Shown: positions 12,767 to 62,691 of the stretch, in pieces | Numbering within the stretch: position 1 is the first letter of the stretch | How the letters are laid out: every line of letters begins with the position of its first letter | DNA from: a phage | Reading direction: 5' to 3' (one strand) | Sequence record: PZ386974.1 | DNA: 64,000 nt | The notes under the pieces: generated by a model | Seen by the model: the letters and a program-made list of their open reading frames with translations, nothing else | The model's database searches: none | Told to the model about the DNA's origin: nothing | Program-made: the position numbers and the translations under genes

Positions 12767-13236
12767 TTTAAACTCTTTCTAAGCTGCTTTTTGAATGAAG
12801 CTATTAATTGTGTTTTAGTGTCAGATTCATTATATTTAAATCCTCTTTGAAGCATCTCAGTCATCATTTCCTCTTTACCTAGTCTTGAGAACTCTTTAGT
12901 TTTGTCTGGAACAAAATTAGGATGGATATTATTATCAGAATAATCTTGTTTCAAATAAGCAAGAAGAGCTTCAAGCCATTCGAGGTAATCAACGTTTTGA
13001 CCTTTAAGACCAGAACGGTTGAACTTATGCTTCATTTGACCTTCTGCTGCGTTGCACAGGTTACATAGTAAACCACGAACCTTACCTGCTTTTGGCCCGT
13101 TTAATTCATGGTCGTGGTCAAGATGGTTACCTTGAACATCAGGGTCTAATTCACGGTGGCAAATAGGACACTTACCGTTCTGTGCATCATAAAATTTTTG
13201 TTTTTCTTCTTTATATTTTGCGCCTGATAATAACAT
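12763..13236 (-). CDS. 49: Endonuclease VII (Holliday junction resolvase) gp49
   Basis: 157 aa; MLLSGAKYKEEKQKFYDAQNGKCPICHREL...HLDHDHELNGP... near-identical to T4 endo VII as recalled. Confidence 0.93.
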   Translation of the reverse strand: MLLSGAKYKEEKQKFYDAQNGKCPICHRELDPDVQGNHLDHDHELNGPKAGKVRGLLCNLCNAAEGQMKHKFNRSGLKGQNVDYLEWLEALLAYLKQDYSDNNIHPNFVPDKTKEFSRLGKEEMMTEMLQRGFKYNESDTKTQLIASFKKQLRKSLK

Positions 13237-13271: not shown

Positions 13272-13685
13272 TTAACTTAAACGTCTTTCTAAATATTCAA
13301 TGTATTCTGCGGCTGCTTGCATCAGGTTACCTTCATAGCCGTCGTTATTTTCTTGTCCGGCTAATTTAGCTAATGCATAAGAAATTCGTTCACCTTCGAA
13401 TTCACCAAGTCCGCCATCACAAACTTCTTGGTCAATTTCTTCGAGTTCATCTATTGAATGGGATTCCCAGAAGCACCAAAGAGAAGTATCACGGTCATAG
13501 ATGCAAAGTTTCTCACCTGTGTTCAACATCACTTCGATAATGCCATGGTCGCCATAACCATCTTCGGTAGTAGTACCAATTACCTTGATGATTGTTCCTT
13601 TCTTTAATTCAGGAAACTTGACTTGTAGTTCTTCATCTTCTTTAACAATCTTGAACCATTTACCGCGAGTTTCAGAAATATTCAT
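13272..13685 (-). CDS. Hypothetical acidic protein (T4 pin/49.x position)
   Basis: Track ORF 13272..13823 has a low-complexity extension; ATG at 13685 (MNISETRGKWF...) gives 138 aa. Confidence 0.45.
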   Translation of the reverse strand: MNISETRGKWFKIVKEDEELQVKFPELKKGTIIKVIGTTTEDGYGDHGIIEVMLNTGEKLCIYDRDTSLWCFWESHSIDELEEIDQEVCDGGLGEFEGERISYALAKLAGQENNDGYEGNLMQAAAEYIEYLERRLS

Positions 13686-13686
13686 A

Positions 13687-13857
13687 TCAATATTCTCTAT
13701 AAAAGTTACGATGAGAACGTTTAGCTTTGCGAAGCTGACGTTTAGTAGGACGAACTGTAAATGGTTGTCCAGAGAAAAAATTCGGATCGGTTTTAATAAG
13801 CAAATACCAATCATGCTTGCCATTTTTTAATAAACGGTACAATAATTTAACTTGCAT
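13687..13857 (-). CDS. Small basic hypothetical protein
   Basis: Track ORF 13687..13884 begins at TTG; ATG at 13857 (MQVKLLYRLL...). Confidence 0.4.
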   Translation of the reverse strand: MQVKLLYRLLKNGKHDWYLLIKTDPNFFSGQPFTVRPTKRQLRKAKRSHRNFYREY

Positions 13858-14158
13858 AATAATCTCTTCCCATTTCCATATCAATTAATTCATTTATTGA
13901 AGGTTCATCATAACACGTTTCTTCGTCGTTGTAAAATGTTTCGACGTCTGGCTCGACCGTCTCCCATCGAGCCGAATACCACGGTTTAACCGCGGAGCTT
14001 ATTGAGCTCTTCATAATCAATCCAGGATTCTAGTCCGGATGGTAAAGCCGATTCAATTTCCCAAAGAAGCTCTTCAATTTTTTGAAGACGATCTAATTCT
14101 TCAACAGGAATAGTAACCATTGATGGAGCTCTTGCTGCACTAATATCGTAAATCATAT

Positions 14159-23592: not shown

Positions 23593-23664
23593 AACGTTCT
23601 CCTCTAGTAAGTAAGGTCTACTATAACACAACCTGAGGAAAAGTAAACTGCTAAATGCCAAAAA

Positions 23665-23686
23665 GCCCCAACCTTTCGGAAGGGGC
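23665..23686 (-). terminator. Intrinsic terminator hairpin GCCCC-uu-CC-GAAA-GG-uu-GGGGC plus U-run, downstream of rI
   Basis: Same hairpin sequence recurs at about 39055 and, with a different loop, at about 38511. Confidence 0.6.
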
Positions 23687-23693
23687 TATTAAA

Positions 23694-23996
23694 TTAGATA
23701 GATGTAGGCTCTAATTTTATTTTCATGAACTCAGCAAATTGTCTGGCGGTTTTTATGCCTTGTTCATGACATTCAAATGCATCATCACAGGGACTATTTT
23801 TGTAATGCTTTGCCATATACTTATAGAATTTTTCAGAATTCTCGACATTTTGAATTTCAAACAAAGTATATACGTTTTTAATCCCTGATTCCATAAAGTT
23901 ATCAAAATATGGGTCGATATGTGCAGTACCAACGATAGGAGTTGTTGCTGCAAAAAACCCCAGCATCGCTATGACAGCTATCGCTCTTAAGGCCAT
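23694..23996 (-). CDS. rI: Lysis inhibition regulator RI (antiholin)
   Basis: 100 aa; MALRAIAVIAMLGFFAAT... signal-anchor N-terminus and ...DPYFDNFMESGIKNVY... resemble T4 RI as recalled. Confidence 0.75.
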   Translation of the reverse strand: MALRAIAVIAMLGFFAATTPIVGTAHIDPYFDNFMESGIKNVYTLFEIQNVENSEKFYKYMAKHYKNSPCDDAFECHEQGIKTARQFAEFMKIKLEPTSI

Positions 23997-29051: not shown

Positions 29052-29381
29052 TTATACTCTAGGCTTTTGAGCTTGTTTGGTATTGGATTCCCATGCAGCT
29101 TTGGTAATTTTGTTAGCGGCATAACCAAAGGCATTAGATAGAACACCTTTAGAGTTGAATACATCCAATCCAATAAGTACACCGGCTGTGTTAAATTTAG
29201 GAGCAAAGTACGCATTAGTTTTAGAAAGAGCTTTTTTCAATTCAGGGTCTTGAACCAAACCATCAAAAACGCCTTTACTATTTACTTTATATGTTACTTT
29301 GGGATTTTTACCTTCTTCGATAGCAGCTTTCTGTTCCGCAGATAATGTAACTTCAGTGATAAACTCTTGATACGTTTTCAT
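29052..29381 (-). CDS. Internal-protein-like protein with capsid targeting sequence (MKTYQEFITE)
   Basis: N-terminal decapeptide matches the T4 IP capsid-targeting consensus MKTYQEFIAE; 109 aa, basic. Confidence 0.6.
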   Translation of the reverse strand: MKTYQEFITEVTLSAEQKAAIEEGKNPKVTYKVNSKGVFDGLVQDPELKKALSKTNAYFAPKFNTAGVLIGLDVFNSKGVLSNAFGYAANKITKAAWESNTKQAQKPRV

Positions 29382-29406: not shown

Positions 29407-29721
29407 TTATTCTTTAGGGAAGTTTTTAGAGTATGCATCATAAAGTTTATTACCGATGCGACGGAAGACTTTAGCTGCAAAACGGTTTTCAGGGTTTTTA
29501 ATCATGATTTGCATCATGTAAGTTCCTGCATCCGAAAGAGCTTCTTCATAGTACCCATTAATTTCTTTAAGGGTCCTACGTTTACCACCAGGACCATCAA
29601 CAGTAATTTTCCATTTACCTGTAGAAGTGCGGCTCGGTGGCTCAACTTGTTCAATCCAAATATAACCACCTTCAACGCGTTGGTTGGCGGATTCTGCAAT
29701 AAATTCTTTATACGTTTTCAT
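29407..29721 (-). CDS. Internal-protein-like protein with capsid targeting sequence (MKTYKEFIAE)
   Basis: N-terminal CTS; 104 aa. Confidence 0.6.
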   Translation of the reverse strand: MKTYKEFIAESANQRVEGGYIWIEQVEPPSRTSTGKWKITVDGPGGKRRTLKEINGYYEEALSDAGTYMMQIMIKNPENRFAAKVFRRIGNKLYDAYSKNFPKE

Positions 29722-30469: not shown

Positions 30470-30525
30470 TTCCTCCAAGTAGTTGATGAATGTATAGTAT
30501 CAAAGTCCTTGGAGGAAGTAAACAC
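30470..30525 (-). promoter_or_regulatory. PeSL upstream of denV (TCCTCCAAG/CTTGGAGGA arms, GTTTAC -35)
   Basis: Plus strand cctccaagtagttgatgaatgtatagtatcaaagtccttggaggaagtaaac; coordinates approximate. Confidence 0.45.
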
Positions 30526-30806
30526 TATTTTTCTGAAGCGCCTGAAATATATTTTTCAAGACGTTGTTTCATTAGCGAGCCGTTCTTAGCGATTTCTTCT
30601 GGTTTATCGCACATACGCAACAGTGCTTCAAGCTTAACGATATCACTGGTGCGCTCAAATTTGCGAGTATCTATCTTACTAGCAAGTTCAGAAATACGTG
30701 CTAATAGACTTTCAGCTTCAACCAAAGCTGCACCTAGCTTAGTTGCAAATGTGTCGGTAGCTTCGTTAAGAATAGATTCTGATAAAAATTCACTATATGT
30801 TTTCAT
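30525..30806 (-). CDS. Internal-protein-like protein with capsid targeting sequence ([10 protein letters not shown])
   Basis: Track ORF 30525..30821; ATG at 30806; sits between e and denV, the T4 ipII/ipIII position. Confidence 0.6.
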
Positions 30807-31291: not shown

Positions 31292-31319
31292 AATACCTCC
31301 CACGTTTATAGGAGGTATT
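31292..31319 (-). promoter_or_regulatory. Hairpin sequestering the gene e Shine-Dalgarno, with a late-promoter-like TATAAAC in the loop
   Basis: AATACCTCC-tataaacgtg-GGAGGTATT directly before the ATG on the minus strand; same architecture as T4 gene e. Confidence 0.55.
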
Positions 31320-31325
31320 TATTAC

Positions 31326-37910: not shown

Positions 37911-38414
37911 TCATTTATTTTTAATTTTGCAAATTTTTTCTGCTTCAGCAATTGCAGCGTCAATGATGCTTTGTGCAATTTTATTACTAGTTGACCTGGC
38001 AATCACACTAAGAACAATTTCTTTTTCTTCACCACCCCAACCCCAAGTCCTTTGTTCGTGGGTACCTTTAACTACAGCTGAAACTTCAACAGAACGTCCA
38101 CCATCAGAAGTTTTAACATCTACAACCCAATCACCATCTTTCTCTTCTACCCTTGATTTATCCCAAGAAATACTAATATATGATTCGCTATCAATAGAAG
38201 TCGCCGGGTTTTTCTCTACCGTAAGACCTTCACTTTCCAGCCATTCAATAGTATTTGCGCATAAATCTGAAGAACACCTAATCGGAAACCGGCAAGATTT
38301 TTCACCTTTAGCTGCAGCGTTATACATCTTTTCTAAAATACGCTTTTGCACGTTTTTAAAAATAGTTTCAGCAGATTCTTCAGATTTTTTATTCAGTTCA
38401 GTGTAAAGACTCAT
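37911..38414 (-). CDS. Hypothetical protein
   Basis: 167 aa ORF with ATG start. Confidence 0.5.
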   Translation of the reverse strand: MSLYTELNKKSEESAETIFKNVQKRILEKMYNAAAKGEKSCRFPIRCSSDLCANTIEWLESEGLTVEKNPATSIDSESYISISWDKSRVEEKDGDWVVDVKTSDGGRSVEVSAVVKGTHEQRTWGWGGEEKEIVLSVIARSTSNKIAQSIIDAAIAEAEKICKIKNK

Positions 38415-38510
38415 AATATTCTCCCCATGTTTTGATAGGTCTATAGTAACACATCTAGGGAAGAAGTAAACATCTTTATGAAATATTTTTATGCCCTAGA
38501 TACCAAAAAG

Positions 38511-38532
38511 CCCCAACCGTAAGGAAGGGGCA
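38511..38532 (-). terminator. Terminator hairpin GCCCC-uu-CC-UUAC-GG-uu-GGGGC plus U-run, downstream of the IP-like gene
   Basis: Same stem as the 23665 and 39055 hairpins with a different loop. Confidence 0.55.
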
Positions 38533-38537
38533 TTCTA

Positions 38538-39002
38538 TTATTTAATTTGTTTAGCAGACCAGATACGGTCTTTAATAAGTTTTTGGATATCTTCAACATA
38601 CTCAAGGCTATGAGCGTGAGGATTATCTTTGAAGCTATGTGCTCGTGCCAGTTTCTGGCCTTCTGTTTTGATTACTAAAAGCTCTTTAAGAATTGCTTCA
38701 TACTTAGAAATAATTCCTTTGGCGATATTTTTTTCTTGAGCGGCTTTAGGGTCCGCTTTTGGTGCAGGTGCTTTACCTGTAGCTTTCTGGAACAATTCAC
38801 CTGATGCAGCTAGGCTTTTAAAAACTCGGCTAACAGTATTAGCATTAGTAAAACCTTCGGCTTTAAAATCTCTAATAAAACGGAAACGTTCTTCATCAGA
38901 GGCGTCTTTGTAAGAATATTTACCTGCTTGAATTGCTGCAATCGCAGCGGCTTTTACATCTGAACTAGATTGTTCAGTCAAAAATTCAGCGTATGATTTC
39001 AT
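38538..39002 (-). CDS. Internal-protein-like protein with capsid targeting sequence (MKSYAEFLTE)
   Basis: 154 aa, Lys/Ala-rich; N-terminal CTS-like decapeptide. Confidence 0.55.
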   Translation of the reverse strand: MKSYAEFLTEQSSSDVKAAAIAAIQAGKYSYKDASDEERFRFIRDFKAEGFTNANTVSRVFKSLAASGELFQKATGKAPAPKADPKAAQEKNIAKGIISKYEAILKELLVIKTEGQKLARAHSFKDNPHAHSLEYVEDIQKLIKDRIWSAKQIK

Positions 39003-39054
39003 GTTGCTTTTCCTAAGTTAATTAACTTATCTATTTATTATTATGCAAAAAAAA

Positions 39055-39076
39055 GCCCCAACCTTTCGGAAGGGGC
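39055..39076 (-). terminator. Terminator hairpin GCCCC-uu-CC-GAAA-GG-uu-GGGGC followed by a U8 run
   Basis: Closes the tRNA/small-RNA transcription unit on the minus strand. Confidence 0.6.
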
Positions 39077-39388
39077 TATGCCTTGCGGCAACCTTGTCGG
39101 GGTTCCACCTGCTAAGGCAAGTGTTTGTACGAAACGCCGGGATTCGAACCCGGTTATTAAGTAGTTGACGCTACTCAATATTTTTAAAAGGCCATATCTC
39201 GACCATATCCGAACGTTCCGTCAAAAACGCTACTCGGCTTACGGCAAAGATATTTCCTCGAATCGATAATTCGGTGCGCCGTTTCTGCTGTGATGTAAGG
39301 GGATATTAACAAATCGTAAAGATTTATTAAGACCAGTCCTTACTCAGGGAGCATCAGTCCGACGACTTACCGGTAGCGACCCGGCTTC
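39077..39388 (-). ncRNA. Candidate stable small RNA region (T4 rnaC/rnaD-like position), including a tRNA-like T-arm
   Basis: About 310 nt without ORFs between the tRNA-side ORF and the terminator; canonical CCGGG-TTCGAAT-CCCGG T-arm at about 39137-39153 but no full cloverleaf. Confidence 0.3.
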
Positions 39389-39733
39389 TTATTTTGACAT
39401 ATCATCAATTTGCTCTCGACGCCGACGCCATAGATTAATCACTTCATTAACACATTCGGCGTTTGATATATGACGGCAATAATATAATGATTCGCGTTTC
39501 TGGAACCGATGTTGCAATGGGATTTCGTTTAAAAGGTCTTTACGGTCAAAGTATTCAAAACTAGTTAACCCAGAACGGTTTTTAATGAACTTCCAATGAC
39601 CGAATTCATTTTGAACATAGATGTAATCTGCATGTTGGTATAACAAATTAATCAATCGGTCTGAAATAACTGTATCATGTTCGTTAAAATAAAACGTTAA
39701 ATCATGAACTACCAGATAAATATTGCCTTTCAT
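39389..39733 (-). CDS. Hypothetical protein adjacent to the tRNA genes
   Basis: Track ORF 39389..39781 begins at TTG inside tRNA-Arg; ATG at 39733 (MKGNIYLVVHDL...) has an upstream Shine-Dalgarno. Confidence 0.45.
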   Translation of the reverse strand: MKGNIYLVVHDLTFYFNEHDTVISDRLINLLYQHADYIYVQNEFGHWKFIKNRSGLTSFEYFDRKDLLNEIPLQHRFQKRESLYYCRHISNAECVNEVINLWRRRREQIDDMSK

Positions 39734-39751
39734 ATTTTCCTCACTTAAAAT

Positions 39752-39828
39752 TGGTCGAGACAGAAGGATTCTAACCTTCAACCTACGGATTAGAAGTCCG
39801 TTGCTCGATACAATTGAGCTATGCCTCG
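39752..39828 (-). tRNA. tRNA-Arg (anticodon UCU), CCA encoded
   Basis: Hand-folded cloverleaf: acceptor CGAGGCA/TGTCTCG, D-stem GCTC/GAGC, anticodon stem ACGGA/TCCGT with loop CUUCUAA, T-arm GAAGG-TTAGAAT-CCTTC. Confidence 0.75.
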
Positions 39829-39834
39829 AATATA

Positions 39835-39908
39835 TGACCCAGACCAGATTCGAACTGGTAACCTTTCCCTTATGAGGGGACTGCTGCTAACCATTGAGCT
39901 ACAGGGCC
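39835..39908 (-). tRNA. tRNA with CAU anticodon (Ile2-type as in T4, or Met)
   Basis: T-arm ACCAG-TTCGAAT-CTGGT, anticodon loop CUCAUAA, acceptor GGCCCTG/CTGGGTC with one mismatch; D-arm folds imperfectly by hand. Confidence 0.55.
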
Positions 39909-40507: not shown

Positions 40508-40798
40508 TCACCGTACCATATTAATGTAATTATATTCAATGCAACGTAATTTCAAAGGATTCTTGAAAATATCATATTCAAGAGGGCCTTGTTCTGTTTC
40601 AATAAAGAAATCAAAGTTAACTGTGTTAAATTTATCGTCTTCACAGAGTAATTTAACTTGCGAAGATGAACGGTCGATATAAACCTTTTCAACCTCAAAG
40701 TTAGTCAGAATACCGTAGTCATCGACTAGTGCTTTAGCTGCTCGTTGGTCGCTTTCATATCCGTTCTCGACAGATTTTACTTTAGCGTAAAGAATCAT
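40508..40798 (-). CDS. Hypothetical protein
   Basis: 96 aa ORF. Confidence 0.5.
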   Translation of the reverse strand: MILYAKVKSVENGYESDQRAAKALVDDYGILTNFEVEKVYIDRSSSQVKLLCEDDKFNTVNFDFFIETEQGPLEYDIFKNPLKLRCIEYNYINMVR

Positions 40799-41157
40799 GA
40801 ATGTTCCACCATTTCAAAGGTATGAGCATCAACAATATGATACCAGTCAAAATTTTCTTCTGCGTTTTTATAAATTTCGCGAAGAGCCTCAACAGTTTTT
40901 CCTGTAGCAACAAGGTCGTCAATACCACCAAGAGGATAACAGTCATAACCAGCAAACAGAAGGAAATTAATAGTTTCTGTAGGTTCTGGATGCAGAACTC
41001 CGTTATCGTCTACCACTTCAAAGAAAGTGTAAGAAGGAGTACAAGTTTTAATCCAGGTCCATGCTTGAGCTGCTGAATCAAATGGTCTGCGTATCAAACG
41101 ACAATCAGGGTCTTTAGAAGGATTTGCTTCAAAATCCGCATATACATGATATTTCAT
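40795..41157 (-). CDS. Hypothetical protein
   Basis: Track ORF 40795..41175; ATG (MKYHVYADF...) at 41157. Confidence 0.5.
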   Translation of the reverse strand: MKYHVYADFEANPSKDPDCRLIRRPFDSAAQAWTWIKTCTPSYTFFEVVDDNGVLHPEPTETINFLLFAGYDCYPLGGIDDLVATGKTVEALREIYKNAEENFDWYHIVDAHTFEMVEHS

Positions 41158-41158
41158 T

Positions 41159-41344
41159 TTACTCACCTTTTGCAATTTTATCCATAACGATAGCGATTAA
41201 ACCGATTAGAAATGCTACTACCAATGAGATAGAATTTTCTGATGTTGACAGTAGTCCGCAAATGAATCCTACAAACATCGAAAAACTAAAAGCCATTGAA
41301 GCAATTACTACAGCAACATTACGAATCAGTTCAGCGCGTTTCAT
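41159..41344 (-). CDS. Small hypothetical membrane protein
   Basis: Track ORF 41159..41365; second ATG (MKRAEL...) has the stronger GGAGA Shine-Dalgarno; single TM helix. Confidence 0.45.
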   Translation of the reverse strand: MKRAELIRNVAVVIASMAFSFSMFVGFICGLLSTSENSISLVVAFLIGLIAIVMDKIAKGE

Positions 41345-41369: not shown

Positions 41370-41415
41370 TTTGATAGGACTACTATAACATAGTCCTATC
41401 AGCATGTAAACTACT
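41370..41415 (-). promoter_or_regulatory. PeSL: GTTTAC -35, inverted repeat GATAGGACTA/TAGTCCTATC with -10 TATAGT in the loop
   Basis: Plus strand gttttgataggactactataacatagtcctatcagcatgtaaac; same arms as the 23151 copy. Confidence 0.5.
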
Positions 41416-41702
41416 TATAGAAGAGTTTTTGCAATAATTTTAAGCTGAGCTACAGAAATATGCTTAGCTTTAAACAGTGCAGTCTCTTCAGCCGGAGAGA
41501 TAACAATAGTAGCGCCATCTTTCTTAGCAGACCATCCATCCCCTAAATAAACAGTACCTTTTACTTCTTCGCCGTCAACCAGACTAATCATTGGTTTACC
41601 CTCGCGTCCTTTATTTGCTTTAATAACTTCGGAAGTAAGGGTTGCTTCGGTCAGAGTAGAAACGTTAGCAACAGGTGATATAAATTCTTTATAGGTTTTC
41701 AT
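41415..41702 (-). CDS. ipI: Internal protein I (IPI), capsid-injected anti-restriction protein
   Basis: 95 aa; MKTYKEFI... CTS and ...GREGKPMISLVDGEEVKGTVYLGDGWSAKKDGATIVISPAEETALFKAKHIS... near-identical to T4 IPI as recalled. Confidence 0.9.
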   Translation of the reverse strand: MKTYKEFISPVANVSTLTEATLTSEVIKANKGREGKPMISLVDGEEVKGTVYLGDGWSAKKDGATIVISPAEETALFKAKHISVAQLKIIAKTLL

Positions 41703-61874: not shown

Positions 61875-62639
61875 ATGGCAACTTATGATAAAAATCTTTT
61901 CGCCAAGCTAGAAAATCGTGGTGGGTATTCTCAGACAAATGAGACTGAAATCCTCAATCCATTTGTCAATTTTAATAATTATGAGAATAGTCAGACATTA
62001 GCCGATGTTCTAGTGGCAGAAAGCATACAGATGCGCGGTATTGAATGTTTTTATGTTCCACGTGAATATGTTGCCGTGGACCTTATCTTTGGTGAGGACC
62101 TTAAAAATAAATTTACTAAAGCATGGAAATTTGCTGCATATCTGAACTCTTTTGAAGGTTATGAAGGAGCGAAATCGTTCTTCAGCAACTTCGGAATGCA
62201 AGTTCAAGACGAAGTTACATTATCTATTAACCCGGGTCTTTTCAAACACCAGGTCAACAATCAGGAGCCCAAGGAAGGTGATCTAATATACTTCCCAATG
62301 GACAACAGTTTGTTTGAGATTAACTGGGTTGAACCATATGACCCATTCTATCAAGTAGGTAAAAATGCGATTCGTAAAATTACTGCAGGCAAGTTTATTT
62401 ACTCTGGCGAAGAAATCAATCCGGTGCTTCAGAAAAATGAAGGTATCAATATACCTGAATTTAGTGACTTGGAACTTAACCCTGTTAGAAATCTTGACGG
62501 TATCCATGACATTAATATCGATGAATATTCTGAAGTTGAGCAAATCAATTCAGAGGCAAGTGAATACGTTGAGCCGTATGTAGTAGTTAACAACCGTGGT
62601 AGACAAAATTCACCATTTGACGATGGGTTTATGAATTAA
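61875..62639 (+). CDS. 14: Neck protein gp14
   Basis: 254 aa; synteny with T4 gp14. Confidence 0.9.
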
Positions 62640-62691
62640 TAAATAGATAAGATAAAGCAAACACCGGTCGAAAGGCCGGTTAGGAGAAATG

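Follow-up and report, generated by a model that had tools for sequence, protein, structure and literature searches.

In the T4 pathway, internal proteins (IPs) bind the scaffolding core through an N-terminal CTS, gp21 removes the propeptides after Glu, and the IPs stay in the head and are injected (PMC9026906). T4 IPI to IPIII (Ip1 to Ip3) and Ip4 to Ip12 of other T-even phages have a ten-residue CTS with an L/I-x-E gp21 site. They are small, basic, and nonessential, are present in some phages and absent from their close relatives, and are unrelated past the tag. IPII and IPIII of T4 begin with MKTYQEFIAE and IPI begins with MKTFKEFTS...ITE. Ten IPIII residues suffice to package foreign proteins (Mullaney and Black 1996, summarized in PMC9026906), and mutagenesis of the IPIII CTS assigned positions 4 and 7 to targeting and positions 8 and 10 to processing, with Asp10 blocking cleavage (summarized in PMC9026906). 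Since 2025, T4 Ip1, Ip2, and Ip3 have been known as injected inhibitors, each of a different GmrSD type IV restriction enzyme (PMC12373910), and every further CTS-tagged protein is therefore a candidate anti-defense factor.

Two other systems are relevant here. T4 Alt and the ejection proteins of giant phages (phiKZ and SPN3US) enter the head by means of an N-terminal propeptide, which a prohead protease of the gp21 type removes by cutting after Glu. PeSL cassettes (promoter-early plus stem-loop) of T4-type phages consist of a variable open reading frame (ORF) between repeated stem-loop terminators, and the ends of their presence or absence coincide with the repeats (Arbiol 2010, PMC2839356; Comeau 2014, PMC4122927).

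Here we describe gene A, found in a 64,000-nucleotide stretch of phage DNA (sequence record PZ386974.1; the window). Gene A probably adds to the known T-even IP class a new member that is essentially unannotated, at a variable locus without a counterpart gene in T4 or T2. Its product resembles the T-even IPs in the tag and the gp21 site, in being small, basic, and nonessential, in its presence or absence between close relatives, and in being unrelated to the other tagged proteins past the tag. In contrast to those IPs, gene A lies at a third locus 3' of rnaC rather than beside gene e/denV or 57B, and its only promoter is of the late type, unlike the early-type promoters of the known IP genes in T4 and in the window. 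Its product is larger than most, has two domains and a Lys/Ala/Pro linker, and is predicted to be packaged. The predicted propeptide is like those of Alt and the giant-phage proteins in its mode of cleavage but is a short IP-type decapeptide rather than a long propeptide, and unlike Alt, the gene A product has no ADP-ribosyltransferase or other enzyme domain.

Gene A and its CTS-like tag

The region is 97 to 99% identical to the genomes of the Mosigvirus phages JM17, mogra, SHSML-52-1, and ATK47, and the sequence assigns the window to a Mosigvirus, an RB69-like T-even phage. The minus-strand genes follow the T4 order: gene 1, 57A, 57B, ipI, tRNA.4 to tRNA.2, the tRNAs, rnaD, rnaC, and the e.x genes. 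Gene A comes immediately after the 3' end of rnaC, and tRNA-Arg and tRNA-Met are some 750 nt away from it. No Rfam model detects rnaC or rnaD, and both were placed by BLAST against T4. The features of this neighborhood are as follows.

38538-39002, minus strand: gene A, with an ATG start, 154 codons, and a TAA stop; precursor of 17.1 kDa
39011-39014, minus strand: Shine-Dalgarno AGGA of gene A, located by reading the sequence; 8 nt upstream of the ATG
39128-39266, minus strand: rnaC (species 1 RNA), 99.3% identical to T4 rnaC; annotated in ATK47 and T4
39273-39389, minus strand: rnaD
39752-39828: tRNA-Arg, in the tRNA cluster
39835-39908: tRNA-Met, in the tRNA cluster
37911-38414, minus strand: next gene downstream of gene A, behind an early-type promoter

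An earlier note on this DNA had described a Lys/Ala-rich protein of 154 residues next to the tRNA/small-RNA region and had counted its N-terminus as the fifth CTS-like sequence. These descriptions were borne out: the ORF is exact on the minus strand, its product has 21 Lys and 24 Ala among 154 residues, the RNA genes listed above adjoin it, and MKSYAEFLTE parallels T4 MKTYQEFIAE and is one of five tagged N-termini. The note had also proposed a search for the gp21 cleavage consensus (L/I-x-E), which is present as Leu8-Thr9-Glu10, with L-x-E retained in every homolog. In the proposed comparison with the T4 IP and Alt families, the tag is of the IP type and no Alt-like enzyme domain accompanies it.

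All five CTS-tagged ORFs of the window are on the minus strand.

38973-39002, minus strand: CTS-like propeptide MKSYAEFLTE of gene A (codons 1 to 10), with the gp21-type cleavage motif L-T-E at residues 8 to 10
29052-29381, minus strand: tagged ORF matching phrog_3966 (function unannotated), adjacent to the next ORF
29407-29721, minus strand: tagged ORF matching phrog_3966
30525-30806, minus strand: tagged ORF directly after gene e, matching phrog_3499 "internal head protein"
41415-41702, minus strand: tagged ORF, the IPI homolog (phrog_4363), with a long propeptide ending in ...LTE

The pattern MK[ST][YF]x[EQ]F[IL]xE was found in 4 of the 241 ORFs of the window, against 9e-6 expected by chance. 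The five tagged ORFs have 5 to 8 of their first 10 residues in common and no BLASTP similarity past residue 10. At the nucleotide level, the first 30 nt of gene A are identical to those of the other tagged genes at 17 to 23 positions. The two counterparts of 29052-29381 and 29407-29721 in the RB69 reference record are altered: tag position 10 is A instead of E in one, and the C-terminus is shorter and divergent in the other.

The gene A tag retains all four determinants known from IPIII: Tyr4 and Phe7 for targeting, and Leu8 and Glu10 for gp21 cleavage. These determinants are also kept by relatives in E. coli, Klebsiella, and Yersinia phages (at least three genera). The tags of the family include MKTYNEFLMTE, MKSYAQFLNE followed by VLNE, MKFKEFLAE, MLKFDEVLAE, MITFNDILVE, and MLNFNEFLAE followed by EINE; aromatic-x-x-hydrophobic-Leu-x-Glu is constant among them, and the neighboring residues vary. 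Some members have a second L-x-E 5 residues further on, and in all members the tag is followed by the start of a conserved domain (SSDVKAAA...). The only other L-x-E of the gene A product, LKE at residues 105 to 107, lies within a long predicted helix, and residues 1 to 8 have an AlphaFold pLDDT below 50, so that the N-terminus is modeled as disordered, as would suit an IP. Gln follows the predicted cut, where the T4 IPs and most relatives have Ala; this difference counts against reading the product as an internal protein.

Conservation and predicted domains of the gene A product

A tblastn search matched gene A in 512 phage records, and 470 of these matches are near full length (at least 80% of the protein). 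Carriers include the Mosigvirus phages JM10, mogra, and PhAPEC2 and the Tequatrovirus phages RB68, PP01, AR1, and Bas42. Against the Tequatrovirus copies, which encode 157 residues at about 74% identity, dN/dS is 0.07 to 0.09, with dS above 1.5. This conservation marks gene A as a real coding gene under purifying selection. Relatives of 177 residues occur in Klebsiella phages (including Marfavirus), in Yersinia phage fHe-Yen9-01, and in Enterobacter and Serratia phages; the Klebsiella and Yersinia homologs have 35 to 39% overall identity and keep the L-x-E motif. An exhaustive HMMER search of 1.84 billion representatives returned only 8 related clusters, and the family is therefore narrow, with no informative distant homologs.

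The family is present in about 500 sequenced therapeutic-type coliphages and Shigella, Klebsiella, and Yersinia phages; it has never been studied because the model phages T2 and T4 lack it. Nearly all records call its members "hypothetical." The curated ATK47 record (L001, KT184309; 4240-4705) annotates rnaC and its neighbors and leaves the 154-residue ORF out. The only source found to name a member "Internal head protein" is one UniRef entry, from Klebsiella phage KPKp (A0AAU8BA37). Phrog_2280 (function unannotated) is matched over the full length by the products of gene A and of gene B (described below) and by the Klebsiella homolog, with E values of 1e-53 to 2e-58.

The predicted mature form of the gene A product comprises residues 11 to 154 (144 residues, 15.9 kDa, pI 9.6). 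The AF2 model is all helical, with a mean pLDDT of 77 and a pTM of 0.45, and places two domains on either side of a linker.

38790-38972, minus strand: three-helix N-domain, residues 11 to 71; AGKYSYKD..SDE.RF.F.RD.KAEGF...V...WKS in the alignments; AF2 helices 13 to 25, 36 to 48, and 54 to 67
38751-38789, minus strand: Lys/Ala/Pro-rich linker, residues 72 to 84, of low model confidence and of varying length among family members
38541-38750, minus strand: antiparallel helical hairpin, residues 85 to 154, with predicted helices 85 to 121 and 128 to 151; contains the LKE at 105 to 107
38728-38734, minus strand: A7 run of the coding strand, where the linker meets the C-domain

The N-domain is the best-conserved part of the family. 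C-domains differ in appearance between the E. coli-type and the Klebsiella-type proteins, with one protein, P0020, bridging the two. Up to residue 43, the gene A product has weak similarity to T4 IPII (14 of 44 identities, hhalign probability of 23%), and phrog_7857 "internal virion protein" matches residues 1 to 43; both matches may point to relatedness with internal proteins. Sequence searches of Pfam, NCBIfam, and the PDB gave only subthreshold noise (MerR_1, GemA, streptavidin, and Shikimate_dh_N), and the domain searches found no enzyme domain. Fold searches with the model returned nothing specific or informative. An HeH/SAP-like DNA-binding motif was considered for the N-domain and set aside, as the Pfam, NCBIfam, and PDB sequence searches did not support it.

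Two irregularities were seen among database copies. The frameshifted variants P0007, P0008, and P0009 all break at the A7 run, in both the +1 and -1 directions, and gene C of a metagenomic contig (L008, described below) is split at an A9 run (about 12800-12812) at the equivalent linker/C-domain junction. These breaks may reflect sequencing error, or else genuine slippage or phase variation. Separately, P0010 (94 residues, from a Logan assembly) is chimeric: an N-terminal portion similar to the tRNA.3-like protein (window ORF 40795-41175, phrog_1411) is joined to the last 30 residues of the gene A product (NPHAHSLEYVEDIQKIIKDRIWSAKQIK), which shows that genes flanking the tRNA cluster on opposite sides have recombined.

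The slot 3' of rnaC, its hairpins, and its promoters

Gene A is flanked by terminator hairpins, one on each side, that are 89% identical. These hairpins and the T4-style early promoter beyond the downstream one were established by folding, pattern search, and comparison with T4, having been missed by the automatic promoter and terminator scan. The window contains the GC-rich hairpin pattern 3 times, the expected number being 0.

39047-39077 (hairpin 39050-39076), minus strand: upstream terminator hairpin AGCCCCTTCCGAAAGGTTGGGGC plus a T8 run; -22.2 kcal/mol, z of -3.1
39031-39040, minus strand: late-promoter-like motif TAATAAATAG, which agrees with T4 TATAAATA at 7 of 8 positions; its end is 29 nt from the ATG
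38505-38531, minus strand: downstream terminator hairpin GCCCCTTCCTTACGGTTGGGGCTTTTT; -17 kcal/mol; right repeat of the cassette
38443-38471, minus strand: early-type promoter GTTTAC-N17-TACTAT, after the downstream hairpin; serves the next gene, 37911-38414

The tRNA/rnaD/rnaC transcription unit ends at the upstream hairpin, which also serves as the left cassette repeat. Downstream, hairpin and early promoter together form a PeSL-like element with the same layout as the region upstream of T4 e.8 and as a copy at 23620-23690 in the window. The hairpin of that copy, the third of the rnaC type (23660-23686, minus strand), is identical to the one at 39050-39076; it follows an rI-like ORF (23694-23996) and precedes an early-type promoter, GTTTAC-N17-TATAGT, forming a PeSL-like element far from the tRNA region.

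The earlier note had placed the cassette between a PeSL promoter and a conserved terminator hairpin. The hairpins proved to be on both sides; the early promoter, in contrast, is not directly upstream of gene A, where a late-type motif stands instead. Because the early promoter follows the downstream hairpin, it bounds the cassette on its 3' side and does not drive gene A. The downstream junction thus resembles a PeSL junction, a stem-loop followed by an early promoter, whereas at the upstream junction the stem-loop leads into a late promoter. The gene A cassette would therefore carry its own late regulation. Early-type promoters, or cotranscription with e, serve the remaining tagged genes of the window and the ip genes of T4; gene A would thus be regulated differently from these, which counts against the internal-protein reading.

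Among gene A and its relatives, the late-type motif lies 2 to 7 nt past the T-run of the upstream hairpin. A perfect TATAAATA is found at this place, 2 to 3 nt past the T-run, in 14 related loci (L003, L005, L006, L008-L011, and L017-L023), including that of a Klebsiella phage. The core is AATAAATA in window-type loci and in all gene B copies and CATAAATA in the Marfavirus copies. That the window has AATAAATA rather than a perfect TATAAATA counts against the internal-protein reading of gene A. The same variant stands before the lysozyme gene e (31316-31323, minus strand) and before the late gene 15 (62638-62645, plus strand); at gene e, in both RB69 and the window, it occupies the position of one of the two TATAAATA boxes of T4. 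We therefore read AATAAATA as a late promoter, and the T-to-A change at its first position appears to be tolerated in Mosigvirus late promoters. The automatic scan found no -35/-10 pair upstream of gene A, where the 44 nt from the T-run to the ATG are too short for one. Motif, position, and conservation together suggest a late-type promoter for gene A.

The contents of the slot vary among phages, with rnaC as the conserved anchor directly upstream. T4 has a single hairpin (AGCCCCGACCGAAAGGTTGGGGCTTTTTGGTATCTAAG...) between rnaC and the e.8 early promoter and no gene in the slot, which is also empty in T2 and PST. Gene A alone occupies it in the window phage and in RB68. The order in RB68 is hairpin, GG-TATAAATA, Shine-Dalgarno site, the 157-residue gene, a second hairpin copy, and then T4-like GGTATCTAGG; its flanking hairpins are near identical, and past the downstream copy, the sequence goes on as it does in T4, where the intergenic sequence is uninterrupted. 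G9062 shows the same near identity of the copies and the same T4-like continuation. The RB69 slot (L004, NC_004928) contains gene B (13429-13991, minus strand), with the tag MKTYAEFLTE. Genes A and B occur in tandem in G9062, in an IMG/VR contig, and in Mosigvirus phiE142, with a further identical hairpin between them. A metagenomic Mosigvirus-like contig (L008) has a third tagged gene, gene C (MYTVNEFLAE+TEIITE), preceded by TATAAATA. In Klebsiella phages too, the gene A homolog is located after the tRNA cluster and is preceded by a GC hairpin and TATAAATA. In IMG/VR, 5 loci with the rnaC anchor were covered.

Intact gene B, 187 residues long, was found in 165 records, G9062 among them. RB69ORF149c and ORF148c are two halves of one such CTS-tagged gene, RB69 being one base short compared with the intact copies. 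By BLASTP and hhalign, the gene A and gene B products align only over the tag (9 of 10 residues), and homology between them was rejected despite their joint membership in phrog_2280, which is therefore a mosaic of partly related proteins.

As the earlier note had suggested, the tag is reused at several genome positions: the slot is empty or holds A, B, A plus B, or C, and unrelated proteins have the same tag. The separation from the other IP loci also stood, with 2.4 kb between gene A and the ipI homolog (ipI/57B side) and about 8 kb between gene A and the IP genes on the e/denV side. The comparisons support modular reuse of the CTS tag on a cassette separate from the two classical IP loci. 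That gene A lies outside both loci counts against reading it as an internal protein; location at such a locus is a descriptive rather than a mechanistic feature. Different payloads with one tag in one repeat-bounded slot are the behavior described for classical IP loci and PeSL cassettes. The locus is a natural example of how tagged payloads move in T-even phages, with hairpin recombination shuffling cassettes that have their own late promoter.

Predicted packaging and possible roles of the gene A product

We consider it likely, although well short of certain, that gene A encodes a so far unnamed T4-type internal protein on a mobile cassette. Transcription would start late in infection, from the gp55-type late promoter right after the rnaC terminator. 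The ten-residue CTS, through Tyr4 and Phe7, would bind the precursor to the scaffolding core of the assembling prohead, where gp21 would cut it after Glu10. The basic 15.9-kDa mature protein would then stay in the head with the DNA and be injected together with it. The cassette itself, in a third variable IP locus, would be gained, lost, and swapped by recombination between the repeated terminator hairpins. The product has every sequence feature that the T4 IP pathway requires, and the promoter would supply it during prohead assembly; packaging into virions and gp21 cleavage are thus predicted. Since Ip1 to Ip3 inhibit GmrSD enzymes and RB69-group DNA carries arabinosyl-hmC, the most likely function, by analogy, would be to neutralize a host defense at DNA entry, with DNA association through the Lys/Ala/Pro linker as the main alternative. 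The literature search returned no virion proteomics for any phage that carries gene A, and nothing for RB69ORF149c and N-terminal tag peptides.

That the product is packaged through its CTS and serves a structural or DNA-associated role, as a histone-H1-like protein that condenses or neutralizes DNA or as a minor core component, is unlikely on balance. The mature pI of 9.6 and a linker that is much longer in gene C (SPKVKPAPTVPKPSTPKAKPEPKPEVKATPKAP) would suit a DNA-associated protein, yet the three characterized T4 IPs are also basic and are specific restriction inhibitors. A structural role would fit the C-terminal helical hairpin, which is typical of oligomerization modules, and the lack of any fold resembling a known defense inhibitor. 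However, gene A is absent from T4, T2, and PST and can be replaced by unrelated genes, which argues against a general structural role.

It is less probable still that the product is a late cytoplasmic protein that stays unpackaged and that IP genes recombining at their 5' ends gave it, as a by-product, a tag without targeting function. The 5' identity of 17 to 23 of 30 nt could serve as a recombination substrate, and chimeric genes do occur in the family (P0010). The residues kept across genera, however, are exactly the functional determinants 4, 7, 8, and 10, while codons and neighboring residues drift, and L-x-E persists in Klebsiella and Yersinia homologs at 35 to 39% overall identity. Moreover, because ten CTS residues suffice to package foreign proteins (PMC9026906), a late-made protein with this tag should be packaged. 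The probability that gene A is only an intergenic spacer with a chance ORF or a pseudogene in decay is negligible. This idea could draw on the copies frameshifted at the A7 run (P0007-P0009) and on the missing annotation in the curated ATK47 record, but it is refuted by the conservation data, with 470 of 512 records spanning at least 80% of the protein and dN/dS of 0.07 to 0.09 at dS above 1.5. A Shine-Dalgarno site, a promoter motif, and a confident helical model also argue against a chance ORF.

Taking gene A as an internal protein, a broader proposal may be made, which we regard as possible but doubtful as a whole. In T-even-type phages, the site 3' of rnaC would be a third hypervariable IP locus, not described before. 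The cassettes belonging to it (genes A, B, and C and the Klebsiella and Yersinia forms, pooled in phrog_2280), with their late promoters, would encode injected two-domain proteins that disarm defenses other than the GmrSD variants blocked by Ip1 to Ip3, for example, defenses against the arabinosyl-hmC DNA of the RB69 group. The linker A-run might also switch between full-length and N-domain-only forms. Further packaged proteins could be sought by a simple rule, the combination of the tag with a late promoter.

One further ORF of the neighborhood, 39389-39781 (minus strand), is homologous to RB69ORF150c/RB68_139 and occupies the gap between tRNA-Arg and rnaD. As listed, with a TTG start, it runs into tRNA-Arg, and at its 3' end it borders directly on rnaD; translation probably begins at an internal ATG (MKGNIYL...).
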